DNA of 64,000 nucleotides from Candidatus Multivoradales bacterium (GCA_965223855.1 CBDCXM010000008.1:1-64000), one strand, 5' to 3'; positions 33,764 to 49,550 are shown, numbered from the stretch's first letter. Notes: generated by a model from the sequence alone, not told the origin. Numbers and translations are program-made.

Positions 33764-36145
33764 CTACTCGGCGACGAGCTTCCGCGCGGCGGCGACCACG
33801 TCGTCCTCGCCCGGAAGGTAGTCGTGCTCGAGGGGGGGCGCGTAGGGAACCGGTGTGTCGGGCGCCGTGACTCTCCGGATCGGGGCGTCGAGGTCGTAGA
33901 AGAGGTCGTCGGCGATCCTCGCCGCCAGTTCTCCAGCGAAGCCTCCCCTGCGGGTGTCCTCATGAAGCACCAGCATCCTGCTGGTCTTGCGCACCGAGGC
34001 AAACAGAGCCTCTTCGTCCAGCGGCACGAGAGTGCGCAGGTCGAGCACCTCGGCCTCGATGCCCTCCTCCTGCAGCCTGCCGGCAGCCGCGAAAGCGGTC
34101 CAGACCATCGCTCCGTACGTGGCGATCGTCAGATCCTCGCCCGATCGACGCACGGCCGCCTTCCCGAGCGGTACCCGCACTGCGGAGCCGGTCGGTACCT
34201 CCTCGCGAAGATCGGTCCTGAAGAAGCCGTAAAGACCCTTCGCTTCGAGGAAGAGAACCGGCCCTTCGTCGTCGATCGCCGCCAACAGGAGGCCTTTCGC
34301 GTCTGCCGGCGTCGAGGGAGCGACGATCTTCCACCCCGGCGTGCGGACGAACCACATCTCGGGACACTGGCTGTGGAAAGGCCCCCCACCCAGGAGCGGC
34401 GTGTGCGTACCGGTCGCTCCGCCGTAGGGCAGCCGGACGACCATCGGCACCTCTCTCCCCCAGCGCCAGTAGACCTTCGCCGCGTTGTTGACGAGTGCAT
34501 TGAAGGCGGGCGCGAGGAAGTCGGCGAACTGCATCTCCACCACCGGTCGGAACCCCAGGAGCGCCGAGCCGACACCGCAACCGACGATCGCCGACTCCGC
34601 GAGCGGCGTATTGAGGCAACGCTCGGGGCCGAACTCCTTGGCCAGCCCGCGGGTCACACCGAACGCGCCGCCGTAGCGCCCACCGACGTCCTCTCCCAGC
34701 AGATAGACCCGCTCGTTCGCCCGCATCGCCTCTCGGAGCCCGTCCCGAACGGCTTCGTCGTAGGACATGCGCCTGGTCGCCGACCCGGCATCCGGCGCGC
34801 GCTCGGGAGGTGGCGGCGGGTAGACACGGGAACGATACTCGTCCGGATCGGGCCACGGTGCGGAAGCGGCAATCTCCGCAGCGGCCGCTACCTGAGCCTC
34901 ACACTCCTCGGCCATCCGGCGTTGGGCGTCGCGATCGAGCACGCCCGCCTCTGCGAGGCGATCGCCGAACAGGACCACCGGATCGACCGCCTCCCAGGCG
35001 GCAGCTTCCTCCGGGAACTCGTAGCCCGGGATCTTCGCCTCCGGGCTGCCGTGGAACCTGTCGTCGTCATGGTGAGCGTGTCCGGACCGACGGTAGCTGA
35101 CCAGCTCGATCAGAGTCGGTCCATGGCCGGATCTCGCTCTCTCCGCCGCCCAGGTGACGCCCGCGGCGATCTCCTCGGGGTCGTTGCCGAAGAGCGTCAC
35201 TCCGGGAATTCCGTAGCCGGCGGCGCGCAACGAGAAGCGGCGGGCCGCCGACTGCTCGCTGACGTGGGTCCCCAACGCCCACTGGTTGTTCTCGATGACG
35301 AACACCAGATTCAGCTTCTGCACCGCGGCGAAGTTGATCGCCTCGTGCCACTCCCCGAGGCTCGCGCCGCCCTCGCCGATGAAGGTCACTCCCACGCGGT
35401 CCTCGTCGGCAAGCCGGAAGCCGTAGGCGATGCCGAGCATCGTCTGAACCGCGACTGCCAGCGGCGCCGCAGGCGGAAGGACGCCATGATCGAAGTCGCC
35501 GGTATGAAGGTCCCGGCCGCCGACCGGCGTGCCGGTCTTCCCGTACTGCACGAGGATCGGATGCAGCGGATCCGGCAGGAACATGAGCAGCGCGCCCAGG
35601 TCGCGAATCAGCGGTGCAATGACGTCTCCCTGGTAGTCCGCACCCGGTGGATACGCCGGAGGGCGCCGGAGTCGCAGCGCTGCGCCGACGATCGCCTCCT
35701 GGCCGGTGGAACGGAACCCTTTCTGCGGTGACGGGTAGTCTCCCCACGCCACCTCCTTGCGGTCGAACGCCGTCTTGAGATGCCCGTCCACCGCTCGAGT
35801 GAGGAGCATGCCGCGCAGGAGCGCCTCGCGCTCCTCGGGCGCGAGGCTCCGCCGGATCCTCCGTCGCTCGAAGAAGCCACGGACTGCGACCTCGAGCGCA
35901 CCGCGCTCACCGGCAACCGCCTCGCCATGGGTGAGGCCGGGGTAGAGGGACACGTCCGAGTACCTCGGGCCCGTTCTGAAACGATGGTCGATGCGCTCGA
36001 CCAGCGCGGTCTCGAGCTCCTCTTCGCTCGCTGCACGCGGCAGATCGCGGATCAGAAAGGGGGCCTCGAGGCTCAGAAAGCCGTGGAGATCGCGCAACAG
36101 GGTCTCGGAGAGCATCGCTCCACCCGCTGGTGAGGGCTCGTTCAT
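33764..36145 (-). CDS. 2-oxoacid dehydrogenase E1, fused alpha/beta
   Basis: ThDP motif 'IGEGG...IENN', 'GEDVGG', 'NTPLAES', 'EMQFADF', 'FHSQ'. Confidence 0.92.
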   Translation of the reverse strand: MNEPSPAGGAMLSETLLRDLHGFLSLEAPFLIRDLPRAASEEELETALVERIDHRFRTGPRYSDVSLYPGLTHGEAVAGERGALEVAVRGFFERRRIRRSLAPEEREALLRGMLLTRAVDGHLKTAFDRKEVAWGDYPSPQKGFRSTGQEAIVGAALRLRRPPAYPPGADYQGDVIAPLIRDLGALLMFLPDPLHPILVQYGKTGTPVGGRDLHTGDFDHGVLPPAAPLAVAVQTMLGIAYGFRLADEDRVGVTFIGEGGASLGEWHEAINFAAVQKLNLVFVIENNQWALGTHVSEQSAARRFSLRAAGYGIPGVTLFGNDPEEIAAGVTWAAERARSGHGPTLIELVSYRRSGHAHHDDDRFHGSPEAKIPGYEFPEEAAAWEAVDPVVLFGDRLAEAGVLDRDAQRRMAEECEAQVAAAAEIAASAPWPDPDEYRSRVYPPPPPERAPDAGSATRRMSYDEAVRDGLREAMRANERVYLLGEDVGGRYGGAFGVTRGLAKEFGPERCLNTPLAESAIVGCGVGSALLGFRPVVEMQFADFLAPAFNALVNNAAKVYWRWGREVPMVVRLPYGGATGTHTPLLGGGPFHSQCPEMWFVRTPGWKIVAPSTPADAKGLLLAAIDDEGPVLFLEAKGLYGFFRTDLREEVPTGSAVRVPLGKAAVRRSGEDLTIATYGAMVWTAFAAAGRLQEEGIEAEVLDLRTLVPLDEEALFASVRKTSRMLVLHEDTRRGGFAGELAARIADDLFYDLDAPIRRVTAPDTPVPYAPPLEHDYLPGEDDVVAAARKLVAE

Positions 36146-36242
36146 CGGCGGGCTAGTATACGGACGGAGTCGGCGATGCCGCCGGGCCGGTCGCGACCCG
36201 GTGATAGCGTCCACGACTCGCCATCCTCCGCCGGTATCCTGC

Positions 36243-39089
36243 GTGAAGTCCTCGACTCAAATCCTGAGCTCGTTTCTGCGCGGCGTTCGTTTCCTCTTCG
36301 ACTCCGCTGCTGCGGCCGTCTTCGTGCCTCCTCCTTCCGACGGCAGCCTCGAGCCGATTCTGGTGCATGACGGCGATCGGGACGCCTTGCACGAGTTCCG
36401 GTCGGTCGAGGCCGCCCAGAGCACGGTGGAGCAGCTGATGGCCGGAGGGCGGGTCGCAGACAGGAGACCCGCGGGCGACTCCGGCGGCGTCTGGATCCTG
36501 CCGATGGTCTCCGCCCCTCCGAAGCCCGCGGATCCACCCACGACCTCTCGACGCGCGGCCGACAACGATCCCGCCAGAAGGCCTCGAGCCTACCTCGCCG
36601 TCCACATCGACTCCGGCTCCGGGCAGGTGGACGATGCCGGGACGTCCGACCCGCGATGGCAGTGGGTGCGGGAGTTCGGAGCCGATCTGGCCGAGCAGGC
36701 GATCAGGGTCCACAGCACCCTGCGCGACCCGGTAACCGGCCTGGCAGACCGCATCGGCTTCCAGGCACTGCTCTCGGACCAGGTGGAGAGGGCGACGCAG
36801 GCAGGCACCTGGCTCTCTCTGGTCCTCATCAACCCTCACAACTTCGGTCAGGTCAACGAGCGCTTCGGCAGGTTCTCGGGAGACAAGGTGCTGCGCGAGG
36901 TCGCAGAGCTGATCTGCGACACGCTGCGGGAATCGGATCCGGTGTCTCGCTACGGCGGTGCGATCTTCGGCGCGCTGCTCCCTGCCACCCCTCCCGAGGA
37001 CGCCACGACCGTGGCGCACAAGCTCGTCCATACCGTGCGCGACAGCACGTTCCTGGACGGTGATGTCCGTCTCGAGCTGTGCTGCGGCGTCGCGTCCCTC
37101 GACCCGGGCGACCAGCCCCTCGGAGACCCTCTCGACCTCCTCAGGAGGGCCGACCTCGCTCTCAACCGGGCGCGGCGCGAGGGGGAGGGTGCGGTGGACG
37201 TGTGGGGGAAGGCTGGAGGTGAGGCAGAGGAGGGTCGCGTCGAGTCGGGGAGGATCAGCGAGCTCTTCAGCGGTGATCTTGCTCGCGACTACCGGAACAT
37301 GGCGCTGCTGCGGGACGCGGTCGACCTCGTCGCCGACACCCACGACCTCGAGACCCTGGCCGGAGCCGTCGTCGAACGGCTCTACTCCGCCTGCAAGGCC
37401 GAGCGGGTCGGGCTGTTCCGTCGCGCCGACGGTCAGCCTCAGCTGGTGCGCGGAATCGCTCGCCCCTCGACTCCGGTCGGAGCGCGACGGGAGACGTTCG
37501 AGCTCGAGCCCGCACCCGCCGCTCTCCTCGCCTCCGCCATGGAGCAGGCTTCCGTCCAGAGCCGGCCCGTGGAGATCGGAGACGGGCGGACTCACCTCGC
37601 CTTCGCAGTGCCGATCGTGGCCGGCGGCGAGGCGATCGGCGGCTTTTACATCGACGGAGCCGTCGAGTCGATCGACGTCGATGCAACCGACCTGATCTTC
37701 TTCAAAGCACTCTCTTCCCAGCTCTCGATCGCCCTCGAGCGAGCGCAACTCGAATCGAGCCGCAGCTCGAGCAGACTCGAGGAGGAGCTCCTCGAGCTGC
37801 GCACCGCAGTTCAAGAGAGCCAGCTGGTCCACACGTCAGAGTCGATGGCCCAGCTCCTGGACGCGGTCGATCGGGTCGGGCCGACCGAAGCTACGATCCT
37901 CATCACCGGCGAGAGCGGCACGGGCAAGGAGATGATCGCTCGCCGGCTTCACGAGTCGAGCGCACGCCGTCGCCGCGGCCTGACGGTCGTCGATTGCGCC
38001 GCCATCGCGCCGACTCTGATCGACAGCGAGCTGTTCGGCCACGACCAGGGTGCCTACACGGGCGCCCAGAGGCGCCGTTCCGGCAGGCTCGCCGAGGCCG
38101 ACGGCGGGACCGTCCTGCTCGACGAGGTCGGCGAGCTTCCGGTCGAGGTCCAGAGCCGCCTGTTGCGGTTCGTGCAGGAGAAGCAGATCACCCTGGTCGG
38201 CGAATCCCGGCCGCGCAAGATCGACGTCAGAATCCTCGCTGCGACGAATCGCGATCTCGAAGAGGAAGCGCGCGCCGGTCGGTTCCGGGAGGATCTCTAC
38301 CACCGTCTGAACGTCGTGAGGCTGGACGTGCCGCCTCTGCGCGACCGCCCGGACGACGTCGTCTTCCTCGCCGAGCACTTTCTCTCCCAGTTCTGCGATC
38401 AATACGGCAAGGTGGGCGCCCACCTCACCGCGGACGCCAGGGAGGCTCTCGTGCGCTACGACTGGCCCGGCAACGTCCGGGAGCTGCAGAACCGGATGCT
38501 GCAGGCGGTGATCCTGCTCGAAGGTCGCGCGCTGGCGGCAGCCAGTCTCGGGCTTCCTTCGGAACCGGCGCCACGAGTCGTCCAACGTTCTCGACCGGAG
38601 AAGGCTCCGAGAGCCGGCGCGACCGTCGAAGAGGCGCTCGACGAGTTGAGGCTCATCCTGCGCGGTCAGATCGAGGCGATCGTCGATCGCAGCCGGGCGG
38701 TCCATCTCCCGCTCGGGAAGTGGCTGGCGGAGGACCTTCTCGCCGAGGCCGACCTGGCCGAGGGAGGCACCGCCAGAAGGGCCGCGCAGCGTATCGGGCT
38801 GGCTGAGACGACCTACCGGCGTCGCCTTGCCCAGGCACAGGCCCGCGAACGCGCCGGGCTCGCTCCGAGGCCCGACGGGTGGCTGGACGTTCGCGAGGCG
38901 TTGACCCGACTCCTGCACGCCTCCGATCGCGACGGAAAGCCGCTGCTGAAGCTGGCCGAGGCGGCACTGCTCGACGAGATCGTCTCGCAGCTCGAGGGGG
39001 ACGAGGTCACGGGAGCCGCGCTCCTGGGAGTCACTCTACCGACGTACCGACGGCGCATCGAGAGTTGGCTGGACAGCGCCGGCACCTGA
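36243..39089 (+). CDS. Sigma54-dependent enhancer-binding protein with degenerate GGDEF and GAF domains
   Basis: 'RDPVTGL...RESDPVSRYGGAIF', GAF-like region, 'GESGTGKE', 'GAYTGA', 'LLDEVGE', 'WPGNVREL', two HTH-like segments; start approximate. Confidence 0.9.
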   Translation: MKSSTQILSSFLRGVRFLFDSAAAAVFVPPPSDGSLEPILVHDGDRDALHEFRSVEAAQSTVEQLMAGGRVADRRPAGDSGGVWILPMVSAPPKPADPPTTSRRAADNDPARRPRAYLAVHIDSGSGQVDDAGTSDPRWQWVREFGADLAEQAIRVHSTLRDPVTGLADRIGFQALLSDQVERATQAGTWLSLVLINPHNFGQVNERFGRFSGDKVLREVAELICDTLRESDPVSRYGGAIFGALLPATPPEDATTVAHKLVHTVRDSTFLDGDVRLELCCGVASLDPGDQPLGDPLDLLRRADLALNRARREGEGAVDVWGKAGGEAEEGRVESGRISELFSGDLARDYRNMALLRDAVDLVADTHDLETLAGAVVERLYSACKAERVGLFRRADGQPQLVRGIARPSTPVGARRETFELEPAPAALLASAMEQASVQSRPVEIGDGRTHLAFAVPIVAGGEAIGGFYIDGAVESIDVDATDLIFFKALSSQLSIALERAQLESSRSSSRLEEELLELRTAVQESQLVHTSESMAQLLDAVDRVGPTEATILITGESGTGKEMIARRLHESSARRRRGLTVVDCAAIAPTLIDSELFGHDQGAYTGAQRRRSGRLAEADGGTVLLDEVGELPVEVQSRLLRFVQEKQITLVGESRPRKIDVRILAATNRDLEEEARAGRFREDLYHRLNVVRLDVPPLRDRPDDVVFLAEHFLSQFCDQYGKVGAHLTADAREALVRYDWPGNVRELQNRMLQAVILLEGRALAAASLGLPSEPAPRVVQRSRPEKAPRAGATVEEALDELRLILRGQIEAIVDRSRAVHLPLGKWLAEDLLAEADLAEGGTARRAAQRIGLAETTYRRRLAQAQARERAGLAPRPDGWLDVREALTRLLHASDRDGKPLLKLAEAALLDEIVSQLEGDEVTGAALLGVTLPTYRRRIESWLDSAGT

Positions 39090-39111
39090 CAGACCGGACC
39101 TGACAGACCGG
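39084..39111. repeat. Perfect 14-bp tandem duplication ACCTGACAGACCGG x2 across the activator stop codon
   Basis: Read directly from the sequence. Confidence 0.8.
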
Positions 39112-39205
39112 GCAGCGCAGAGCCCTCTCCCTCGAGGGGATACCGTCCCACCTCCACCCGCCGGCCACTCGGGTCCGAGGGCTCGGAGGGAGCGTGTTCC
39201 GACCC

Positions 39206-39225
39206 GCCTCGCCGCCCGGCGAGGC
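39206..39225. terminator. GC-rich hairpin between convergent transcripts
   Basis: GCCTCGCCG-CC-CGGCGAGGC inverted repeat; no clear U tract. Confidence 0.4.
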
Positions 39226-39286
39226 AGGGACTGAAGGGTGACTTCATCTCATCCGGCGCAGTCCTGTTGTCTCAGGGCCGGGACAG

Positions 39287-39457
39287 CTAGCCGCGGGAAG
39301 GGTCGACCAGAGGGGCCGGCGGCTCGTCGTCGCCGGTATCACCCTTCTCGTCGATGTAGTCCGAGGGACGGGCGAGGAATCCCTGATCGGCGCCCGTATC
39401 GGTCGCGGGGAGAACGGGGAGGACGGTCAGCATGAGGGCGAGAATCAGTCGAAGCAT
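39287..39457 (-). CDS. Small secreted peptide copy 3, 56 aa: MLRLILALMLTVLPVLPATDTGADQGFLARPSDYIDEKGDTGDDEPPAPLVDPSRG
   Basis: Translated by hand; AAGGA RBS upstream; paralog of the two neighbouring ORFs. Confidence 0.88.
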   Translation of the reverse strand: MLRLILALMLTVLPVLPATDTGADQGFLARPSDYIDEKGDTGDDEPPAPLVDPSRG

Positions 39458-39539
39458 GGGTAGGGTCCTTTTTCAGAGGTTGAGCGCCTCCGGCGTGGGA
39501 AGGAGGCTCGTTCCAGCGGTGTCCTGACGGGAAGCTGGG

Positions 39540-39710
39540 CTACCAGGAACGGTCGTCGCGCAGCGGCGCAGGCGGCTCGTCGTCGCCCGTGTCGCCCTTC
39601 TCGTCGATGTAGTCCGAAGGCCGGGCCAGGAAGCCCTGGTCGACATCGGTATCGGTCGCGGGGAGGACGGGGAGGATGGTCAGCATGAGGCCGAGAATCA
39701 GTCGAAGCAT
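39540..39710 (-). CDS. Small secreted peptide copy 2, 56 aa: MLRLILGLMLTILPVLPATDTDVDQGFLARPSDYIDEKGDTGDDEPPAPLRDDRSW
   Basis: Translated by hand; AAAGGA RBS; signal-peptide-like N-terminus. Confidence 0.88.
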   Translation of the reverse strand: MLRLILGLMLTILPVLPATDTDVDQGFLARPSDYIDEKGDTGDDEPPAPLRDDRSW

Positions 39711-39767
39711 GTGGATGTTCCTTTGTCGTGAGCAGGTTCGTTAGGGAAGGTCGCGATGCAGCTCTCG

Positions 39768-39941
39768 CTACCAGGACCGGTCGTCGCGCAGCGGCGCGGG
39801 CGGCTCGTCGTCGCCGGTATCACCCTTTTCGTCGATGTAGTCCGAAGGACGGGCGAGGAAGCCCTCGTCGGCTCCGTCGGTCGTCTGTGCCGGCAGCACC
39901 GGCAGCACGGTGAGAATCAATGCGATCATCCATCGGAACAT
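39768..39941 (-). CDS. Small secreted peptide copy 1, 57 aa: MFRWMIALILTVLPVLPAQTTDGADEGFLARPSDYIDEKGDTGDDEPPAPLRDDRSW
   Basis: Translated by hand; GAGGAG RBS; signal-peptide-like N-terminus. Confidence 0.88.
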   Translation of the reverse strand: MFRWMIALILTVLPVLPAQTTDGADEGFLARPSDYIDEKGDTGDDEPPAPLRDDRSW

Positions 39942-40292
39942 GGCGTTCTCCTCTTCTGGTCGTTCCGTTGCGTTGAAGTCGAAGCGACCTCATGATCGCT
40001 CCGACGGGTAGACACTTCTTGACACCCGGTCTTCGACGTTCGAGCGGCGTAGGGACCGCGCCGGGTCAACGATCGGCGGCCGAGACGGCGAAAAAACGGA
40101 GCAGCGGAAGCTCCGCAAGTGCGCATGCGGGGATGCGGGTCTTGCGACCCTCTCACTACAACCACCTGGTGTCCCTCAGCCATCGTTCGGTTTCGAGCCC
40201 CCCCGGGCCCGACGTATTATGTATCAGCTTTTAGCGCACACCCTCCGTCGCCGCAAGGGAGTCCGGCACAACGTCCGACTGGTGGAAGCCCG

Positions 40293-43200
40293 ATGGGTCT
40301 CGACCCTAGCCCGGGCCCCTGCTCCCTCGGGTCCCTTTGTGGGGTAAACTCCCGAGTCTTGAGAGGAAATCGGCTTTCGGCGCGACTCTCGGGGAGATGC
40401 GAGCCGAAGCGAAGACGGGGCATACGTCCTGCCCTTCGCGCCACGCTCGTCGCATCCTCGCTCCTGTGGCTGGTCTCGACGGCCTCCGGGGCGGCGCCTA
40501 CCTACCGATTCCACTACCCGCTCACCGGCGACTCCTCGGTCATCTACGACGTCTCGCACATCGTGCAGGACGGCCGCGGCTTCATCTGGCTCGGCTACGA
40601 GCGCAGCGTCGACCGGTACGACGGCTCCCGCGTCACGAGAGTCAAGTTGCCGGGGTCGGCGTCGCTCACAGAGATGACCACGTCCAACGACGGCCATCTG
40701 TGGCTGGCGACGCGTTCTGAAGGTCTGCTGGTCTGGGACGCGGCCACGGAGAGCTTTCTGCGCTGGACGCCCGACCCCGGTTCACCGGCCGTCCCTCTCG
40801 ATCTCGAAGCACTGACCGTCGGTCCGAGCGGGTTGCTGTGGGCGGCGACGAGTGACGGCAGAGTCGTCAGGATCGATCCCATCCGACGGCAGGCGACCGC
40901 AGTCGCGGCTCTGTCCGGCGGCGGCAACGTCTCGATTCGCAGCCTGGCCACCGGTCCCGGCGGCCAGGTCTGGATAGGGACGGGCAGCGGCGATCTCTAC
41001 CGGTTCGACCCTGCATCCAACGAGTCGACCCGACTCCGGGAGGCTGTCGGCGCTGCGCCGGTCTCGGCGCTGATCGCCGACGAGGAAGCGGTCTGGGCGG
41101 CGGGCGAGACGGGCCGGCTGATCCGCATCGATCCTCGCAACCTCGAGACGACGGCGATGGTCGTGGCTACCCGTGAGCGTGCCGAGCCACAGTCGATCCT
41201 CTCGCTGGCGCTCGACCCGCAGGGCAAACTCTGGGTCGGCACCGTCGATGGTCTGCGTCAGTTGTCGTCGGACGAACGGCGCCTCGAGACGGTACGAGCC
41301 GACCAGCGCGAGTTCAGCGAGCCCAACAGCAGCGCCGTGCGCGCGCTCTACCTCGATCGAGGCGAAGTGCTGTGGATCGCGAACGACGGCGGCATCGCCA
41401 CGGTCACGACCCGGGCCAGCGGCTTCACCCACTGGCGCATCGAAACGGGTGGGGCGACACACCCCGTCACCTCTCTCGCTGTCGAGGAGGACGGAACACT
41501 GTGGGCGGGCACCTACGACGGTGGGCTCTTCCGGAGATCTCCGTCGGGTGTGGTCGAGCAGATGGACCGCTCCCCCATCTCCGTCCGCGACGAGGGCGGA
41601 ACCGACCGTTGGCGCTCGAGCGCCAACGACTTGCACATCGCTCCTGACGGCACGTTGTGGATGGGGACGATGCGCAAGGGACTCGCCAGATGGGATCCGG
41701 CGGCGGGAGAGTTCGACTACCTCCCCTTCGACCCCCGCACCGAGGGTGCGCTCAACAACTCGACGGTGACCGTGCTGGCCGATCGCCGCGCCGGTGGACT
41801 GTGGGTGGGCACCTTCGCCGGAGGACTCAACCAGCTGGACACCGAAACCGGCAGATTTCGGGCCGAGAAGAGCGATCCCGACGACCCGACAACCCTGAGT
41901 CAGAACCAGATCAGAAGCCTGCTGGAGGATTCGGCAGGGCGTCTGTGGGTCGGCACGCGAGACCACGGGCTCAATCTCCGACGTCCCGGTGATCGAGGCT
42001 TCCTCCGCCTGAGGATGGACACCACCGACAGCCGGGCGCTCCAGGACGACACCGTCTTCGCTCTGACGGAAGATTCAGACGGGAGGATCTGGGTGGGTAC
42101 CTGGGGAGGGCTTCATCAGGCGCTCGTGACCGACAACGGCGTCGAGTTCCGGCACTACGGCCGCGAGGAAGGCCTCCAGGGCCGCAGGGTCTATTCGATC
42201 CTCGAAGACGCAGACGGCATGATCTGGCTCAGTACTTCGAGCGGTATCTCGAAGCTCAACCCGACGACCAACACGATCGTCAACCTGGGCCTCGATCACG
42301 GACTTCCGCCGACCGGATTCAACTTCAACGCCTATGCCCTGGGTCCGGACGGGACCCTGCACTACGGCAGCAGCTACGGTGTGACGTCGCTCGATCCGAA
42401 GCAGACTCTGGTCGAGGTCTACACGCCGGAGATCATCCTCACTGGAATCTCGAAGACCGGAGGGTCGACCACGGTAGAGACGGACTCGGTCACGCTCTCC
42501 TACAGCGAGGGGTTCGTGACGTTCGACTTCAGCCTCCTCGACTTCGGCGCACAGGACCGCAACCGCTACGAGCACAGGCTCGACGGGTTCGACGACGAAG
42601 GAAAGTGGGACGACACCGGCTCCCACCAGCGGGCGACCTACTCCCAGCTTCCTCCCGGCCGCTACACGTTCCGCGTCCGCGGAGCCAACAGCGAAGGGGT
42701 CTGGTCGGCGAACGAAGCGCGCGCCGAAGTTCACGTCCTGCCTCCGCCCTGGGCCACCTGGTGGGCCTACACCGCCTACATCGCGCTCGCCGTAGCGATG
42801 GTTCTCGCCTATGCCCGGATGCAGTCGCGCCGCCAGCAACGCGAGGCGACGTACCGCCGCCGGCTGGAGAGCGAAGTGCACCAGCGCACGCAGGAACTCG
42901 CCGAGCAGAACGAGAAGCTGCGCTACGCCAACGAGTTGCTCGAGGTGGCGAGCGTCACCGACTCACTCACAGGCGTACGGAACCGGCGCTTCCTGCTGAC
43001 GACGATCGATCAGGACATCGCTCTCGTCGATCGAGCCTTCGCCAAGGACGCCGTCGATCCCGAGAACTCCGCGTTCGTCTTCATCCTGTTCGATCTGGAC
43101 GGATTCAAGGAGATCAACGACGGCTATGGCCATTCGGCAGGCGACCTGGTCCTCTACCAGGTTCGGGATCTCCTCGCGCAGGCGTGCCGCACTTCCGACA

Positions 43201-43640
43201 CCCTGGTGCGATGGGGCGGGGACGAGTTCCTCATCGTGGCGAGAGAGGCGACGAGACGACACGTCGAGGCCCTCGCGGAGAGGATCCGTCAGAGCGTCTC
43301 CGGCCACGAGTTCGACGTCGGCGGCAGCACTCCCGTACGCCTCACCTGCTCCCTAGGCTTCGCCTGCTATCCGTTCGTCGCCGGAAACCCCAAGCTGTAC
43401 TCGTGGGAAGAGGTGATCGACATCGCCGACAGGGCTCTGTACGTGGCAAAGCGCCATGGACCGAACATGTGGGCTGGAATCTTCGGCACCGAGCGAACGG
43501 AAGAGACACCCTCGGAGGATCTCCTGACGCTGATCCTGGAGCGACCGGAGCTTCTCAACGACGAGGGGAGCATCCGGCTCGTCACCTCGAAGCCCACGCC
43601 ATACGCCATTCACCCCAGATCCAAGCCTAGCGGCAGGTAA
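40293..43640 (+). CDS. Membrane sensor diguanylate cyclase: periplasmic beta-propeller repeats + Y_Y_Y domain + TM + GGDEF
   Basis: Repeated 'D..G.LWVGT..GL' blades, 'YEHRLDGFD...ATYSQLPPGRYTFRVRGAN', TM helix, 'RTSDTLVRWGGDEF'; start uncertain (40293 to ~40400). Confidence 0.92.
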   Translation: MGLDPSPGPCSLGSLCGVNSRVLRGNRLSARLSGRCEPKRRRGIRPALRATLVASSLLWLVSTASGAAPTYRFHYPLTGDSSVIYDVSHIVQDGRGFIWLGYERSVDRYDGSRVTRVKLPGSASLTEMTTSNDGHLWLATRSEGLLVWDAATESFLRWTPDPGSPAVPLDLEALTVGPSGLLWAATSDGRVVRIDPIRRQATAVAALSGGGNVSIRSLATGPGGQVWIGTGSGDLYRFDPASNESTRLREAVGAAPVSALIADEEAVWAAGETGRLIRIDPRNLETTAMVVATRERAEPQSILSLALDPQGKLWVGTVDGLRQLSSDERRLETVRADQREFSEPNSSAVRALYLDRGEVLWIANDGGIATVTTRASGFTHWRIETGGATHPVTSLAVEEDGTLWAGTYDGGLFRRSPSGVVEQMDRSPISVRDEGGTDRWRSSANDLHIAPDGTLWMGTMRKGLARWDPAAGEFDYLPFDPRTEGALNNSTVTVLADRRAGGLWVGTFAGGLNQLDTETGRFRAEKSDPDDPTTLSQNQIRSLLEDSAGRLWVGTRDHGLNLRRPGDRGFLRLRMDTTDSRALQDDTVFALTEDSDGRIWVGTWGGLHQALVTDNGVEFRHYGREEGLQGRRVYSILEDADGMIWLSTSSGISKLNPTTNTIVNLGLDHGLPPTGFNFNAYALGPDGTLHYGSSYGVTSLDPKQTLVEVYTPEIILTGISKTGGSTTVETDSVTLSYSEGFVTFDFSLLDFGAQDRNRYEHRLDGFDDEGKWDDTGSHQRATYSQLPPGRYTFRVRGANSEGVWSANEARAEVHVLPPPWATWWAYTAYIALAVAMVLAYARMQSRRQQREATYRRRLESEVHQRTQELAEQNEKLRYANELLEVASVTDSLTGVRNRRFLLTTIDQDIALVDRAFAKDAVDPENSAFVFILFDLDGFKEINDGYGHSAGDLVLYQVRDLLAQACRTSDTLVRWGGDEFLIVAREATRRHVEALAERIRQSVSGHEFDVGGSTPVRLTCSLGFACYPFVAGNPKLYSWEEVIDIADRALYVAKRHGPNMWAGIFGTERTEETPSEDLLTLILERPELLNDEGSIRLVTSKPTPYAIHPRSKPSGR

Positions 43641-45391
43641 TGCGGCCCGCCCGCGGCGACGCCGCCAGGTCGGCCGCTTCCGCCACCCTTCGGGTCCTGC
43701 TCGTCTGCGCCGAGAGTCTCAAGAGCGAGGCGCTCAGACTGCTCGAGGAGGCCGGAGACCGCATACGCGTGGTGATCGCCTCCGAATCGGAGGCGGCGGA
43801 GGCGATGCTCGGTGCAGGGCGCTTCGACGCGGTACTGATCGAGTCGACGGCGGACGGCACCTCCGGCGAAGAGCTGTGCCGACGGTTCCGTGAGCGCTCG
43901 CGGTTCGACGATGTGCGTGTCGTAGTCGTCGTCGATGGCGGCAGGGAAGAGACCGACGAGGCCCTCGCCGCCGGCGCGACCGAGGCGGCACCGCGCCCCC
44001 TCGCTTTGCCGGCACTGCTGGGACACCTCGGTGGCACCCGTCTCCAGATCGAGCAGCCGGAGGTCGATGATGGGAAGCGCGACTCGAGGGTCGATCCACT
44101 GACCTCGCTGCCGGATCGCAACGCCTTTCGCCGACTGCTCGCGGAGCGTCTCGAAGCGAGGCAGGGAGACGGGCCCGTAGCGGCGATCCTCCTCGACATC
44201 GACCGCTTCAAGAAGATCAACGACAGTCTCGCCCACTCTTTCGGCGACCGGGTGCTCGTGGAGTTCGCGCGCCGCCTCAGCGTGGCACTCGGCGGGCCTG
44301 CCGAAGGGCGGGCCCTCGGTCGATACGGAGGAGACGAGTTCGCGGTGATGCTCGGCGACCTGGAGCGCGTAGGCGACGTCGCACAGGCGGCACGACACAT
44401 TCTCGCGACCCTGGCCCGCCCCCTTGCCGTGGAGGACCGCGAGATCTTCATCACGGCAAGCGTCGGGGCGGCCGTGGCACCGGCCGACGGCAAGACCGCG
44501 GAGCTGCTGCTGCGCAACGCCGAGACCGCGATGTACGCGGCCAAGAAGGCGGGGCGCGACACGTTCCGCTTCTATACCGACCCGATGAGCGCTTCGGTCG
44601 TGCGCAAGTTCGATCTCGAAAACAAGCTGAGGCGAGCGCTCGAGCGTGACGAATTCGAGCTCCTCTATCAGCCGATCATCAATGCAAGACGGCAGAGCCT
44701 GACCGGCGTCGAGGCGCTGTTGAGGTGGAACCGGGCGGGCGAGGAACCGAGTCAGCCGGAGGAGTTCATCGCCGTCGCCGAGGAGACCGGACTGGTGGTG
44801 GAGATCGGTGAATGGGTGCTCCGGAAGGCCTGCGCGCAGGCGCACGAGTGGAACCGCTCGTCCCCCTCCCCGGTTCGCGTGACCGTCAACGTCTCACATC
44901 GCCAACTGCGCAGCCGCGGCTTCGTCAGCTCGGTGGCGAGGATTCTCGGGGACACCGGGCTCGATGCCCGCCTCCTGGAACTCGAGATCACCGAAAGCAG
45001 CGTCGTCCGCAACGAGCGCGAGACGCTCACCGCACTCCACCAGCTCAAGGTCCAGGGGATCCGCCTCGCGGTCGACGACTTCGGGACCGGACACTCGGCC
45101 CTGAGCTATCTCAAGAAGTTCCCGCTCAACACCCTGAAGATCGATCAGTCCTTCACGCGCGGGATCACGACCGACGCCGACGATGCCGCCATCATCACCG
45201 CGACGATCAACATGGCCCACGGGTTGAACATGACAGTCGTCGCCGAAGGGGTGGAACTCGAAGAACAGCTCTACTTCCTGAGCCAGAACCAGTGCGACGA
45301 AGTCCAGGGGTTCCTCTTCGCCGCTCCCCTCGACGTCGAAGAGGTCGGTCGGCGGCTCCATGCCCAGAGCTGGGGCCCCGCCTCCGGCTGA
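43640..45391 (+). CDS. Receiver-like + GGDEF + EAL c-di-GMP enzyme
   Basis: 'RYGGDEF', 'LLYQP', 'EALLRW', 'DDFGTG', 'EGVE'; TAATG overlap with the DGC. Confidence 0.92.
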   Translation: MRPARGDAARSAASATLRVLLVCAESLKSEALRLLEEAGDRIRVVIASESEAAEAMLGAGRFDAVLIESTADGTSGEELCRRFRERSRFDDVRVVVVVDGGREETDEALAAGATEAAPRPLALPALLGHLGGTRLQIEQPEVDDGKRDSRVDPLTSLPDRNAFRRLLAERLEARQGDGPVAAILLDIDRFKKINDSLAHSFGDRVLVEFARRLSVALGGPAEGRALGRYGGDEFAVMLGDLERVGDVAQAARHILATLARPLAVEDREIFITASVGAAVAPADGKTAELLLRNAETAMYAAKKAGRDTFRFYTDPMSASVVRKFDLENKLRRALERDEFELLYQPIINARRQSLTGVEALLRWNRAGEEPSQPEEFIAVAEETGLVVEIGEWVLRKACAQAHEWNRSSPSPVRVTVNVSHRQLRSRGFVSSVARILGDTGLDARLLELEITESSVVRNERETLTALHQLKVQGIRLAVDDFGTGHSALSYLKKFPLNTLKIDQSFTRGITTDADDAAIITATINMAHGLNMTVVAEGVELEEQLYFLSQNQCDEVQGFLFAAPLDVEEVGRRLHAQSWGPASG

Positions 45392-45450: not shown

Positions 45451-45879
45451 GTGTCGATCCCGGCGGCCACCCTCGAACTGCTCCGCGACCTCGCCTGCCG
45501 CGAGCCGGTGTCGCTCATCATCTCGGGAGCCTGCATGGAGCCGGTCCTGCGCGACGGCGATCGGGTGACGGTCAGCCGACGGCGACGCTACGCTCCCGGC
45601 GACATCGTGGCGTTTCAGCGAGCCGGAGGGGAACTGGTGGCCCACAGGGTCCTCGGCTACTGTCCGACTCGCAGCGGCTGGAAGCTGATGGCGAGAGGAG
45701 ATCGCCTGTCGCGTGAGGACGAGCCGGTGACGCTCGATCGAGTGGTCGGCCAGGTCGTGGCGACCACCGCTGGAGCACTCGACAAGCCCGGCCCGCAACT
45801 GCGCTTGCTGTGCTCTTTCGAGCTGCTCCGACGACTCGCCCGGCGGGCCCTGTCATGCTTCTCGGCGAACGCTTCCTGA
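45451..45879 (+). CDS. S24/S26 peptidase-family protein
   Basis: 'ISGACMEPVLRDGD', 'PGDIVAF', 'VAHRV', 'RGD'. Confidence 0.8.
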   Translation: MSIPAATLELLRDLACREPVSLIISGACMEPVLRDGDRVTVSRRRRYAPGDIVAFQRAGGELVAHRVLGYCPTRSGWKLMARGDRLSREDEPVTLDRVVGQVVATTAGALDKPGPQLRLLCSFELLRRLARRALSCFSANAS

Positions 45880-46790
45880 CACAGCCCGATCTGTTCCCGG
45901 CACGCCTGGCCGGGACACCCGCCGGGAACGAGGCGGTCGAGCTCGAGTTGCCCGGCGGCCCCTACGATGTCGCGGGCCTCTCGAGCCGCCAACGAGACGC
46001 TCTCGAGGGCCGTTACGGCCCGCTGTGCAAGAGCTCCGGAGCGCGGAGCCTCGCGCAGGCGGTGCCCATTCGTGTCTTCATGGTGGACAGCGGAGAGTTC
46101 CTCGCCGGGGACACGGCCGGGAGGGTCAACGACTTCGACTTCGACTATCTGGAAGACCGCGTCCGGCTGGCAGGCCACCGGGTGATGGCGCAGCTGCGCC
46201 TCGCCCCCTCATCTACGCTGGCCCTGTGGACCAGCGTCACCGACGAGGGGCCCTTCCTCGAGCTGTTCGAGAACTGCTTCAGGGTCTGCGTCGCCTACAG
46301 GCTGCTGGAGAGTGGGGGCGCTCTCGTTCATAGCGCAGCGATCGCCGACAACGGCAAGGCGTGGCTCTTCTTCGGTCACTCGGGGGTCGGCAAGACGACT
46401 CTGGCGCGAAGCGCCCGCGAGCAGGGCTTCGAGCTGCTGAGTGACGACCTCAACGCGGTCGTCGCACGCGGGGACGGCCTGGCACTCGTGAGAATGCCGT
46501 TCTCGGGCGAGCTGCGCCACCCTCCCGCCCCCGCCACCGAAGTGCCCCTGACCGCCGCCGCGGCGCTGGTGCAGGCCGAGTCGGTCGACTGGAAGCCGCT
46601 GACCTCGGGCCGCGCGATGGCGGCCCTGGCGTCGAGCTGCCCGTTCCTCAATCGCGATCCGCATCGGCTCCCCAGCCTTCTCGATACCCTTCGGGCGATG
46701 GCGGACCGCGTACCGATCGGAGAACTGTCGATGACCCTGAACCCGAATCTGAGGCAGGTGTTGCCTCGTCCCGACGAGGTGACGGCTTGA
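45855..46790 (+). CDS. HPr-kinase-related P-loop protein
   Basis: 'LVHSAAI', 'GHSGVGKTT', 'LLSDD', 'PFSGE'. Confidence 0.8.
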   Translation: MLLGERFLTQPDLFPARLAGTPAGNEAVELELPGGPYDVAGLSSRQRDALEGRYGPLCKSSGARSLAQAVPIRVFMVDSGEFLAGDTAGRVNDFDFDYLEDRVRLAGHRVMAQLRLAPSSTLALWTSVTDEGPFLELFENCFRVCVAYRLLESGGALVHSAAIADNGKAWLFFGHSGVGKTTLARSAREQGFELLSDDLNAVVARGDGLALVRMPFSGELRHPPAPATEVPLTAAAALVQAESVDWKPLTSGRAMAALASSCPFLNRDPHRLPSLLDTLRAMADRVPIGELSMTLNPNLRQVLPRPDEVTA

Positions 46791-47065
46791 AGCCGGAGCT
46801 GTCTGCCGTCCTCGAGCGGGCAGACGACGTCCGCTACCGCTCGGTCGAGCGTGAGACCGTCGTCATCCGCCAGCAACAGGCCGAGGCACTCGTACTCAGC
46901 GAGGTGGCCGGGCGGATCCTCGACCTGCTCGACGGCACGCGAAGCCTCGAAGAGGTCGTCGCCCGCCTGCTCGACGAGTTCTCCGTCGATCGGGCGGTTC
47001 TGGAAGAGGACGTCAGGGCCTACGCCGGAGAACTTCTCGAGACCGGACTGGTGCTCGAAGCATAG
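46787..47065 (+). CDS. PqqD-family RiPP recognition element (RRE)
   Basis: 'LSEVAGRILDLLDGTRSLEEVVARLLDEFSV...DV..Y..EL...GLV' pattern. Confidence 0.9.
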   Translation: MKPELSAVLERADDVRYRSVERETVVIRQQQAEALVLSEVAGRILDLLDGTRSLEEVVARLLDEFSVDRAVLEEDVRAYAGELLETGLVLEA

Positions 47066-47173
47066 TCTCGATCGGGCAGCCTGGACGGCACGAGTCGAAC
47101 TGCACCACCGCGACGCGGCGCCGGCTGGCCTTCTGCGGGAAGGTCGCAGCGACCCCTTCTCGAAGGCCGGAGC

Positions 47174-47338
47174 TCAGGACTGAATCGGGCCGACCGTACA
47201 GCTGAGGGGGTCGGTCTTGCCGGTGTCGCAGACGACCGCGAGAGCCTCGAGGCGCTCGCGCGAGAGCGTCCGCGGCTTGCGGTAGGGCCTCTTGCTCTCG
47301 TTCTCCCCGCCCCTGCCTACGCCATGACTCATCTTCAT
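47174..47338 (-). CDS. Putative RiPP precursor, 54 aa: MKMSHGVGRGGENESKRPYRKPRTLSRERLEALAVVCDTGKTDPLSCTVGPIQS
   Basis: Translated by hand; lies just downstream of the radical SAM gene; YxxP leader motif; two Cys in the C-terminal core; purine-rich RBS. Confidence 0.82.
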   Translation of the reverse strand: MKMSHGVGRGGENESKRPYRKPRTLSRERLEALAVVCDTGKTDPLSCTVGPIQS

Positions 47339-47396
47339 CCTACAGCCCCCCTCGATTCGATCCCAGAACCCCCTCCGAGACCCCGATCATACGTGC

Positions 47397-48488
47397 CTAC
47401 TCGACGATCGGCAACAGCGCAGAACCGGGAGCCGCAGCCTCCTCTTTGAGCTGCCTGCGCGCCGCAGCCGCCGGATAGAGACCCAACGGACTGCCGGTCT
47501 GCGTCTCGGCGTTCCCGGGACAGAAGGCCATCTGGGATCCGAACGTACCCTGGCCCTCGATCGATCTCTTCACTTCTTCGGTCGTCGAGCGGACCTCCTC
47601 GAGCCCTGCCGAGCCGCTCCACAGCTCTTCGATCGAGGTTTCGTGGAGATTGCCCACGGCTCGTCTCCACTGAACGCAGGGATACACGGTACCGAATGGA
47701 TCGATCGCAATCGTCGAGGAGCCGGCCCCGCAGTGCTTGCTGGTCGGTACGGCGGGTAGCAGGTCGTCTCCCTCTCTGGACACCAGAATCGTCGCCGCCG
47801 CCTGCCGTTCGGTCTCGCGCTCGGCACGCTTCGACTGAATCCTGAAGAGTCTCAGCACCGCCTCCCTCGAAGCCCGGATCGACTGCGGCTCCGCATCGCC
47901 GTCGTCGCGCGGCGTCACCTCGGGATCGATCTGCATCGGCAACCCGAGGTCTTCGACCAGTTCGATCATCGCCTCGAGCTCGTGCTCGTTCCAGGCGGTA
48001 AGCGTGGTGTTGACCTTCATCCGGAGGCCGAGTTCGCCGGCCTCCCTGAGGTTCTCCAGCAACCGGTCGAAGCTTCCCGGTACGCGGGTCTGGCGATCGT
48101 GCGTCGCGGCCGTGGCTCCGTGGAGACTGGTTTCGATCTGAAACGGGTCGACCTCGTCCCGGAGCCGGCGCGCCACGTCCCCTCTCAGCGCGTGACCGTT
48201 CGACTTCAACCGCACCACGAAGCCGAGATCCCTCGCGCGACGACCGAGCTCGAAGAAGTCCGGATGCGCCAGGGGCTCCCCTCCGCTGAGAATGAGATTC
48301 AACGTCCCGAGGCGCTCCAGACCGGAGAAGAGCTCGAAATACTGCTCCTTGTCGAGCGGCTTGCCCCGCAGCGACAGATCGTTGTAGCAGAAAAAGCAGT
48401 CGAGGTTGCACCGGTAGGTCAGCTCGATGAGGGCTGAAAACAGGTGGTTCTGCTGCCAGGTCTTGTGGACGATCTTGGAGAAGCTCAT
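47397..48488 (-). CDS. Radical SAM protein with SPASM/Twitch domain (peptide maturase)
   Basis: 'CNLDCFFC', 'SGGEPL', 'CGAG...DPFGTVYPC...GNL', 'FCPG'. Confidence 0.92.
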   Translation of the reverse strand: MSFSKIVHKTWQQNHLFSALIELTYRCNLDCFFCYNDLSLRGKPLDKEQYFELFSGLERLGTLNLILSGGEPLAHPDFFELGRRARDLGFVVRLKSNGHALRGDVARRLRDEVDPFQIETSLHGATAATHDRQTRVPGSFDRLLENLREAGELGLRMKVNTTLTAWNEHELEAMIELVEDLGLPMQIDPEVTPRDDGDAEPQSIRASREAVLRLFRIQSKRAERETERQAAATILVSREGDDLLPAVPTSKHCGAGSSTIAIDPFGTVYPCVQWRRAVGNLHETSIEELWSGSAGLEEVRSTTEEVKRSIEGQGTFGSQMAFCPGNAETQTGSPLGLYPAAAARRQLKEEAAAPGSALLPIVE

Positions 48489-48641: not shown

Positions 48642-49550
48642 GTGAGCGTCCGCACCCGCACGACGGCCGTGCTGATGATCGGGTTCGGTTTCGCGGTGTC
48701 GGCGGCCGGGGCCAACCCCGCAGTCGCAACGGCGACCCTCCTCGGCAATCAGGAGTTCGCGCTCTGCCGCGATCTCGGTAACCGGCTCGGCAGCGTCAGT
48801 CTCGAGCAGTGCCGCGCCGCCGGTCTCAGTCACGCCGGCGCCTGGTCGGCCGAAGGGAGGGCGATCGTCTACCGGGACTTTCCCCGGCTGCCCGGGAGGA
48901 AGCCGCTGGGTAAGGTCCTTCTCATCGGTGGCATCCACGGCGACGAGTACTCGTCGATCAGCATCGTCTTCCGCTGGCTTTCGACGCTGCGCAAGTACCA
49001 CTCGGGACTCTTCGAGTGGCGCATCGTTCCCGTGCTCAATCCTGACGGTCTACTGCGCCGACCCGCACAGCGCATGAACGCCAACGGGGTCGATCTCAAT
49101 CGCAACTTCCCTTCTCCCAACTGGGCGTCGGAGAGTCGCGACTACTGGGTTCGCCGGACCTCCCGCAATCCCCGCCGATACCCCGGGCCGGCCGCGTTGA
49201 GCGAGCCGGAGAGCCGCTGGCTGGCCGATCAGATCGCCGACTTCGAACCGGACGTCATCGTCTCGGTCCACGCGCCTCACAGCATCGTCGACTACGACGG
49301 ACCCGCAGCGGCGCCGGAGAAACTCGGCTCGCTCTATCTCAAGCTCCTCGGCACCTACCCCGGATCTCTGGGTCGCTATGCCGGCGTCCACATGGACATC
49401 CCGGTCGTGACGATCGAACTCGCGAGCGCGGGCTCGATGCCCTCGGCGGGCGAGCAGCGCGACATCTGGATCGACCTCGTTCGCTGGCTGAGGGGCAAGA
49501 TGCCCGAGCGGGCTCTCGGTCCGGGCAGCCCCCGGACCGGCGGCGGCTGA
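48642..49550 (+). CDS. M14 zinc carboxypeptidase / murein peptide amidase A-like
   Basis: 'GGIHGDE', 'NPDG', 'NANGVDLNRNFP', 'SEPES', 'VSVHAP'. Confidence 0.88.
   Translation: MSVRTRTTAVLMIGFGFAVSAAGANPAVATATLLGNQEFALCRDLGNRLGSVSLEQCRAAGLSHAGAWSAEGRAIVYRDFPRLPGRKPLGKVLLIGGIHGDEYSSISIVFRWLSTLRKYHSGLFEWRIVPVLNPDGLLRRPAQRMNANGVDLNRNFPSPNWASESRDYWVRRTSRNPRRYPGPAALSEPESRWLADQIADFEPDVIVSVHAPHSIVDYDGPAAAPEKLGSLYLKLLGTYPGSLGRYAGVHMDIPVVTIELASAGSMPSAGEQRDIWIDLVRWLRGKMPERALGPGSPRTGGG

Follow-up and report, generated by a model that had tools for sequence, protein, structure and literature searches.

We report a locus, at positions 36,243 to 45,391 of a 64,000-nucleotide stretch of the genome of Candidatus Multivoradales bacterium (GCA_965223855.1 CBDCXM010000008.1:1-64000; this whole stretch, with a GC content of about 68%, is called the window below), in which a sensor diguanylate cyclase, a GGDEF-EAL protein and a sigma54 activator appear to form a conserved unit built on the second messenger cyclic di-GMP (c-di-GMP), accompanied by an array of three small genes for predicted secreted peptides. 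There is good evidence that the cyclase and the activator act together. We hypothesize that the peptides are a lineage-specific addition to this unit, acting on it as a periplasmic modulator, a reading to which we assign a probability of about 0.4. An earlier note on this DNA had described these genes, with the peptide genes divergent from the cyclase and convergent with the activator, and had joined them into a circuit in which an exported peptide is sensed by the cyclase. The gene order that we obtained from a listing of open reading frames (ORFs), from GC content at third codon positions (GC3) and from family scans agrees with that description in all features and strands. The GGDEF motif of the cyclase is intact (RTSD-x5-GGDEF), that of the activator is degenerate (GGAIF), and the cyclase and GGDEF-EAL genes are indeed coupled, the ATG of the latter overlapping the stop codon of the former (TAATG).

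The activator contains GGDEF, GAF, Sigma54_activat (E = 2.4e-63) and AAA_lid_14 domains according to Pfam. In its GGDEF domain, the sequence GGAIF takes the place of the active-site motif, and RESD, a candidate inhibitory site (I-site), lies five residues upstream. The catalytic GG(D/E)EF is lost in all 14 aligned activators, which read GG[VA][IVT]F, and 13 of the 14 retain the complete pattern RxxD-x5-GG[VA][IVT]F, the exception reading HAYD. The ATPase motifs are well preserved in the same alignment: Walker B and the GAYTGA loop are conserved in every sequence (one reads GGYTGA), and the Walker A core SGTGKE is invariant, the first E of the motif being replaced by A or P in four. The first 160 residues gave only a GAF-like lead (Atlas score 0.87); at the C-terminus no helix-turn-helix (HTH) family was recognised by Pfam at E<=0.01, and a conserved region of about 170 residues is present there. 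We infer that the GGDEF domain of the activator is a receptor-type domain, predicted to bind c-di-GMP. Because LpxC, Omp85 proteins and sigma54 (rpoN) are all encoded in the genome, the organism is a diderm equipped with the sigma54 machinery. Searches of the full-text literature found no description of a GGDEF-fused sigma54 activator.

A search with the N-terminal half of the activator gave full-length orthologues, 35-46% identical, in the majority of the 45 family genomes (tallies over these 45 include G005, which is flagged as unpublished and on which no specific claim depends) and in two other families of the class (10 of 151 genomes, E<=1e-30). We fetched 18 loci outside the genus of the window and scored the neighbours of the activator. 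A propeller cyclase adjoins it in 14, drawn from three families and showing several gene orders. Twelve loci (L042-46, L048, L050-52, L062-64) have a co-directional cyclase beside the activator and no small ORF in the gap, the GGDEF-EAL gene lying between the two or not; among these, the cyclase precedes the activator in L063, and the match in L064 is to the propeller part only. A peptide gene is present in two loci (L073, L074), and the other four (L047, L049, L053, L075) have no cyclase within the fetched stretch. Since the linkage has survived changes in gene order, and since the activator domain combines a dead active site with a live I-site, we regard it as well supported that the two proteins work together and that the activator senses c-di-GMP, with binding predicted from the motif. 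What stands of the proposed circuit is thus the cyclase, EAL protein and GGDEF-sigma54 activator as a conserved functional unit (14/18 loci; RxxD in 13/14); the peptide as the general input of that unit does not stand, given the 12 loci in which the activator-cyclase pair has no peptide gene.

In a quick maximum-likelihood tree of 21 activator sequences, a split with 97% support separates the peptide-bearing ones from all 16 peptide-less ones, those of the other families included. From this split we conclude that the module has long existed in two forms, of which only one includes the peptide. The activators of the two other families nest inside the peptide-less clade of this family, and several genomes hold two or three copies; a gene tree at odds with taxonomy in this way points to old paralogy or transfer.

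The cyclase consists of a signal or transmembrane segment, two Reg_prop propellers, a Y_Y_Y domain, a further transmembrane segment and a GGDEF domain (Pfam E-values of 2.3e-41, 1.9e-13 and 1.1e-35 for Reg_prop, Y_Y_Y and GGDEF, respectively). Hydrophobic segments can be read from the sequence before residue 68 and at residues 817-840, and the active-site residues G1033-F1037 are invariant in 14 sequences. From Pfam and direct reading, no other protein of the unit has a periplasmic part, which makes the cyclase the obvious partner if an exported peptide works with the unit. This part is homologous to that of the Bacteroides hybrid two-component sensors (PDB 4A2L/4A2M, 3V9F, 3VA6 and 3OTT, E-values from 2.4e-72 to 7e-34), the best structural match being 4A2L at E = 2.4e-72. 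Literature searches turned up no paper on propeller/Y_Y_Y cyclases and no peptide ligand for that fold. The GGDEF-EAL protein has strong Pfam matches to EAL (4.8e-74) and GGDEF (5e-38), and its translation shows ELLYQP, EITE, DDFGTG, KIDQSF and EGVE, which we compared with the known list of catalytic EAL motifs and metal-binding residues; its pseudo-receiver reads DAVLIE at the acceptor position. It is probably a c-di-GMP phosphodiesterase, as judged by these motifs.

Judged by their substitution patterns, the three peptide ORFs are real genes under purifying selection. A purine-rich stretch resembling a ribosome-binding site precedes each of them, their GC3 of 0.79-0.86 is like that of real genes in the window, and copies b and c are 75-80% identical to copy a. 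The ratio of nonsynonymous to synonymous differences per site (pN/pS) between the window copies is 0.26-0.32 at pS 0.37-0.55, as expected of translated genes and not of chance ORFs, and a 25-residue core, GFLARPSDYIDEKGDTGDDEPPAPL, is identical across all three despite a pS of ~0.4-0.5. Among paralogues of the peptide overall, pN/pS is 0.12-0.64 at pS 0.18-0.56, and between species it is 0.29-0.80, with 0.29-0.42 for G001 against G002 and 0.58-0.80 for more distant pairs.

In the window peptides, an initial M-[FL]-R leads into a hydrophobic run of 14-15 residues with prolines and LPA, and the remainder is acidic; the predicted mature form has 38-39 residues, a mass of ~4.0-4.3 kDa and a net charge of -7 to -8. 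Similar features of a Sec-type signal can be read directly in 12 sequences of the peptide family: M-[FLI]-R, 12-15 hydrophobic residues with Pro, and small residues at -3/-1, with sites such as LPA|T, SVS|T and SVA|T. The signal peptide is followed, as a signature of the family, by D-x-x-D-[DE]-[WYE]-x-C-x(3-6)-C-x-P.

A profile built from 12 sequences finds the family in 7 of the 45 family genomes, belonging to three genera: all five of the window's genus (g1), and the single genomes of g13 and g9. In whole-genome profile searches, relatives are present in all four other species of the genus, in 2, 2, 2 and 1 copies. The divergent members in the two further genera were located by position (G016, L073 4675-4818; G012, L074 11474-11629), having been missed by the first profile searches, so absences elsewhere are limited by the sensitivity of the profiles. 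With this limit, no credible member was found in 151 genomes of the order, where the marginal matches, at E 0.004-0.03, fell on unrelated ORFs or on the signal peptide of a 403-residue protein, and none in 200 other genomes of the class with the ten-row profile A6, built without the two divergent members. Searches of 5.8 billion sequences and of 1.84 billion representatives returned the three proteins of the window only; scans of metagenome contigs with narrower peptide queries returned nothing, one genome match being judged spurious. Pfam and NCBIfam gave no credible family for 10 members, and Atlas no usable match.

Where the peptide occurs, its position is constant. The peptide genes are convergent with the activator in all seven bearing genomes, with tail-to-tail gaps of 24-197 nucleotides, and divergent from the cyclase in five (G000, G002, G004, G016 and G012); in G001 the contig ends at the peptides and hides the cyclase side. 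A unit of nine genes is shared by the three genera: activator, peptide, cyclase, EAL protein, S24-like peptidase, HprK-like protein, PqqD, a cysteine-containing peptide and a radical SAM enzyme. As to the co-occurrence that the earlier note proposed to check, the peptide always lies beside the activator where it exists, and the activator-cyclase pair is found without it in 12 loci. One may ask whether the peptide is a passenger, that is, an unrelated small secreted protein that settled in a permissive intergenic site and was inherited with its neighbours. The narrowness of the family (7/45 family genomes, 0/200 other class genomes with profile A6), the absence of matches in two very large protein collections and in metagenome contigs, and the unlinking of the cyclase in one species would all fit such a history, and as the whole neighbourhood is syntenic within the genus, adjacency there says little by itself. 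Against it, position and orientation have been held in three genera whose activators are mutually only 38-41% identical, and wherever the peptide is present the neighbouring sensor evolves in a regime of its own, described below. We consider a mere passenger unlikely.

That regime became apparent when the identity of the sensor was compared with that of the GGDEF domain in the same protein pairs. The ratio of the two is 0.51-0.68 in nine peptide-bearing pairs and 0.76-0.94 in seven peptide-less pairs, without overlap; within the genus, the sensor is 43-60% identical and the GGDEF domain 83-91%. The excess divergence is concentrated in propeller 1 (residues 119-340 and 414-448), which is 27-35% identical within the genus against 57-75% within peptide-less genera, and propeller 2, the Y_Y_Y domain, the transmembrane segment and the GGDEF domain are conserved in the genus to a degree equal to or above that in peptide-less genera. 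In terms of pN, propeller 1 of the genus has 0.39-0.51 and propeller 2 0.20-0.32; the corresponding values for peptide-less pairs are 0.22-0.23 and 0.16-0.23. Propeller 1 of the peptide-bearing lineages thereby diverges at roughly double the rate. The divergence of propeller 1 fits co-evolution with a fast-changing peptide, and we take it as a hint of such co-evolution and not as proof. Together with the constant position of the peptide genes in three divergent genera, the fast propeller 1 sharpens the hypothesis of a link between peptide and sensor, which is still unproven.

From these observations, we hypothesize the following scheme. An extracytoplasmic cue would lead the cyclase to raise c-di-GMP, and the EAL protein would lower it; c-di-GMP, bound at the I-site of the activator, would control the AAA+ ATPase and through it sigma54 transcription. 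The three small genes would yield Sec-exported peptides, cut after an LPA/SVS-type site to mature forms of ~38 residues with a net charge of ~-8. These fast-evolving peptides would most likely act in the periplasm on propeller 1 of the cyclase, as ligand or modulator, and would serve as a cell-autonomous feedback or tuning device and not as a freely diffusing quorum signal. A stronger version, in which the peptides are a species-specific ligand of propeller 1 that sets c-di-GMP and the sigma54 programme, and the locus is the first such relay in a diderm, periplasmic or intercellular, is possible, but we hold it to be somewhat doubtful.

A number of observations weigh against a peptide acting on the sensor. 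Among solved structures, those nearest to the sensor belong to the Bacteroides hybrid two-component sensors, whose known ligands are glycans or glycan fragments. Twelve loci keep the cyclase-activator pair without the peptide, and in G003 the cyclase, the EAL gene and the radical SAM cassette are on a separate contig from the activator and peptides (a tRNA-Thr gene, L019 10900-10975, lies at the breakpoint between the two blocks). The window's species is the only one without the cysteine pair (C-x3-6-C) and the PPPP motif found in L004, L007, L008, L020, L073 and L074, an acidic DTGDDEPPAP stretch replacing them in all three copies (39287-39941), and since every other member has kept the pair, the function may differ here. 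The acceleration of propeller 1 has dN/dS below 1 with synonymous sites near saturation, and relaxed constraint would look alike; the compared pairs represent only two or three lineages and are not phylogenetically independent, and repeat-rich propellers are prone to misalignment. Complementarity of charge between peptide and sensor was considered and dismissed, both being acidic (the sensor has a net charge of -20 to -38 with and without the peptide). Throughout the genus there is no sigma54 site at the peptide genes or the cyclase (at <=2 mismatches and in a weighted scan), nor elsewhere in the unit. A prediction of the complex between the sensor (residues 125-877 of the long ORF, 14 rows) and the mature peptide (10 rows) scored 0.02 against a mark of 0.32, which counts as "no answer" and was used neither way.

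The regulatory DNA bears on how the peptides are expressed. In each of the four genomes of the genus with a complete upstream region, the peptide strand has a single copy of a block TGTG-N8-CCTTGC-N17-GCTAnA, 224-289 nucleotides upstream of the first peptide ATG; in G003, the block has remained with the peptides though the cyclase has moved. The other two genera have TAGACA-N16-TACCAT instead, a few bases from the start codon of the cyclase. Both conserved blocks read as putative promoters of the sigma70 -35/-10 type; the spacing of the TGTG...CCTTGC block is wrong for a -24/-12 promoter, as which it was also tried by direct reading. Should the block be the promoter of the peptides, that of the cyclase must lie inside the peptide leader, and the two would be transcribed head to head with overlap. 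The leader has no Rfam match at the gathering score or at E<=5 and no conserved structure (fold z -0.47, weak consensus). A terminator-like hairpin followed by a T-run is present at 40116-40096 on the minus strand, inside the presumed 289-nucleotide leader; as a riboswitch or leader RNA element it was rejected, not being conserved in congeners.

In the peptide-less loci, a sigma54-like -24/-12 site is often found just 3' of the activator and upstream of the cyclase or EAL gene, for example TGGCATCGGCTTTGCT in L044 (6525-6540) and TGGCACGCGGGGTGCA in L052 (7564-7549), and the best such site reached p<0.1 in 6 of 13 gaps when compared with random windows of the same locus. Further sigma54-like sites in relatives lie at L049 6367-6382 and in the L062 10286 region. 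The sites after the activator gene suggest that, in peptide-less loci, the activator drives the adjacent c-di-GMP genes.

These promoter data, together with the type of signal, bear on the model of the earlier note, in which the peptide leaves the cell, builds up with density and is sensed by the propeller cyclase in a quorum-sensing-like manner. That model shares with ours the conserved position and the divergence of propeller 1, and arrays of one to three genes with species-specific cores do resemble pheromone precursors. However, the only export signal is of the Sec type, which by itself leads to the periplasm, and an outer membrane is present, which a peptide of ~4 kDa would not cross unaided. 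No adjacent exporter or processing gene can be tied to the peptide; the HlyD-family gene of the congeners and the S24 peptidase are members of other conserved groups of genes. The peptide promoter is sigma70-like, without a sigma54 site, so that no autoinduction loop is visible. With the cyclase also unlinked from the peptides in one species, the exported quorum signal as it was proposed is not supported, and we judge it very unlikely; the Sec-only signal, the outer membrane and the lack of a visible loop make a periplasmic modulator the likelier of the two. In most relatives (e.g. L019 5559-6782, L020 1509-2783), the divergent neighbour on the upstream side of the activator is this HlyD-family membrane-fusion gene; in the window and in G033, a gene for an E1 dehydrogenase is found in its place.

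The same DNA admits another view, that the peptides belong to the unit without being the input of its sensor, either as a secreted output (matrix, adhesion or antagonism) or through regulatory antisense transcription. In the antisense version, the array splits an ancestral operon running from activator to cyclase, its leader overlapping the 5' region of the cyclase and its 3' end lying 24-197 nucleotides from the activator stop. The peptide-less loci are co-directional with sigma54-like sites, a layout that the peptide-bearing loci have lost; the cyclase start is a few bases from the -35-like element of the peptides in the two other genera and ~36 nucleotides from it in the window; and the tail-to-tail gaps are short, at 24, 29, 37, 55, 150 and 197 nucleotides. 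An output in the form of tandem small secreted proteins also has a precedent in a cyanobacterium in which such proteins are reported to enable biofilm development (PMC4997328). On the other side, the mature peptide is under strong purifying selection, which speaks for a role of the product beyond that of transcription alone, the leader shows no conserved structure (z -0.47), and there is no sigma54 promoter through which the activator would control the peptides. Both forms of this explanation together seem unlikely to us.

The cassette downstream of the GGDEF-EAL gene (45451-48488) travels with the peptide-bearing unit in all three genera. It contains its own peptide with cysteines (47174-47338), whose counterparts in three congeners are 70-77% identical and those in two further genera 50-63%. 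Scores to ScmC, HprK_rel_A/B, the GeoRSP PqqD and radical SAM/SPASM maturases are weak (31 against a cut-off of 125 bits for ScmC) and, being far below the curated cut-offs, do not make the cassette a member of the SynChlorMet, GeoRSP or HprK-rel systems. The S24-like peptidase, of which orthologues were found in relatives, has a Cys in place of the Ser that is usual in the GxSMxP motif of the family. Its company might suggest that the three array peptides are themselves precursors of a ribosomally synthesized and post-translationally modified peptide (RiPP) matured by this S24/HprK-like/PqqD/radical SAM-SPASM cassette, the more so as the array peptides of relatives have two cysteines and multi-copy precursors are common for radical SAM RiPP systems. 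However, the cassette has a conserved two-cysteine precursor of its own beside the radical SAM gene, the window peptides lack cysteine though the cassette is intact, and their Sec-type hydrophobic N-terminus is unlike the usual leaders. Array and cassette are moreover on different contigs in G003, and three genera that lack the array peptide (g6, g14, g4) have HprK-like genes as well. We therefore find a RiPP origin of the array highly improbable.

Coordinates of the unit, its motifs and the flanking genes are collected in the table. At 49560-51781 the window has two adjacent genes with Cds6_C NTF2-like domains, one fused to a YkuD L,D-transpeptidase and the other to TPR repeats; genes with Cds6_C domains lie directly 3' of the cyclase in some peptide-less relatives.

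Table. Positions, in the window, of the c-di-GMP/sigma54 unit, the peptide array and neighbouring genes
Feature	Position	Strand	Basis
Sigma54 activator (bacterial enhancer-binding protein, bEBP), 948 aa	36243 (GTG)-39089	+	Pfam/NCBIfam; GTG start read from sequence
RESD-x5-GGAIF, intact I-site and dead active-site motif of activator GGDEF	36927..36968	+	
Activator AAA+ motifs: Walker A GESGTGKE, sigma54-contact loop GAYTGA, Walker B LLDEVGE	37908..38135	+	
Peptide gene c, 56 aa, signal-peptide-like N-terminus, acidic tail ending VDPSRG	39287..39457	-	
Peptide gene b, 56 aa; predicted mature part 38 aa, net charge -8	39540..39710	-	
Peptide gene a, 57 aa, first gene of the array	39768..39941	-	
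TGTG-N8-CCTTGC-N17-GCTAnA block, putative promoter on peptide strand, 289 nt 5' of first peptide ATG	40230..40270	-	
Sensor diguanylate cyclase, 1115 aa from ATG 40293 (longest ORF from 40119)	40293..43640	+	Pfam; start read from sequence
Cyclase propeller 1, residues 119-340	40647..41312	+	
RTSD-x5-GGDEF, I-site and active-site motif of cyclase	43188..43229	+	
Pseudo-receiver-GGDEF-EAL protein, 583 aa	43640..45391	+	Pfam
S24-like peptidase, 142 aa, first gene of the cassette	45451..45879	+	Pfam Peptidase_S24 25.7 bits, cut-off 23.3
HprK-related kinase-like gene	45810-46790	+	
PqqD-family peptide chaperone	46787-47065	+	
Two-cysteine peptide, 54 aa, likely radical SAM precursor	47174-47338	-	
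Radical SAM/SPASM enzyme, 363 aa	47397-48488	-	Pfam Radical_SAM + SPASM
M14/MpaA-like peptidase	48642-49550	+	
YkuD transpeptidase	49560-51065	-	
E1 dehydrogenase	33764-36214	-	

In c-di-GMP networks, sensor cyclases without a known input are numerous, and hard-wired routes from c-di-GMP to transcription are rare. The unit described here would be a compact and conserved route of this kind, comprising a sensor cyclase, a probable phosphodiesterase and a sigma54 activator with a predicted I-site receptor domain of its own. Taken with the accelerated propeller, the peptide family makes a candidate, concrete enough to be tested, for a protein input to a diderm cyclase; if the peptides do act on the sensor, the range of ligands of the Reg_prop/Y_Y_Y fold would widen beyond glycans and a peptide layer would be added to c-di-GMP control. 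Should the peptide input be refuted, the activator-cyclase module would remain as a new variant of c-di-GMP-dependent sigma54 regulation.

Literature searches on peptide pheromones and cyclases in Gram-negative bacteria turned up only reviews and the EbfG proteins, four small secreted proteins of Synechococcus elongatus that enable biofilm development and carry a double-glycine secretion motif (PMC4997328). The N-terminus of the window peptides is instead Sec-like, and no link of EbfG to a c-di-GMP sensor is seen in the accessible part of that account. The cassette recalls the SynChlorMet and GeoRSP systems in its HprK-like, PqqD and radical SAM/SPASM members, from which it differs by scores far below the cut-offs and by the addition of the S24-like peptidase. 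Among activators, PMC10333796 describes FleQ, FlrC and VpsR as c-di-GMP-binding bEBPs with a REC-AAA+-HTH layout, FleQ binding c-di-GMP on its AAA+ domain, and FleQ (PMC3424551) and BerB (PMC5552954) are reported as c-di-GMP-responsive bEBPs. The window activator resembles these proteins as a bEBP that would link c-di-GMP to sigma54 (or related) transcription; it departs from the FleQ type, as there described, in having a separate degenerate GGDEF domain with RxxD and GAF-type flanks upstream of the AAA+ domain, and in that no HTH of the Fis type was recognised. The same paper (PMC10333796) lists PelD and PopA as c-di-GMP receptors with a degenerate GGDEF domain and an RxxD motif. A dead active site with RxxD kept is what the window activator has in common with them, and the receptor function listed for those two is here predicted from sequence. 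The output would differ, being a sigma54 AAA+ ATPase and not polysaccharide synthesis or the targeting of proteolysis. PelD, too, combines GAF and GGDEF domains. The Bacteroides hybrid two-component sensors share with the cyclase a homologous double propeller and Y_Y_Y domain between membrane segments, and differ in that their output is a histidine kinase and response regulator where the window protein has a GGDEF cyclase. For the peptides, our working analogy is with YfiBNR, in which periplasmic YfiR represses the cyclase YfiN, and with MgrB, a small regulator of PhoQ: in each, a small exported protein beside a membrane sensor tunes that sensor from the periplasm. There is no sequence relationship to YfiR, which is a folded protein of ~190 residues, whereas the window peptides are ~38 residues long, acidic, fast-evolving and often present in several copies.

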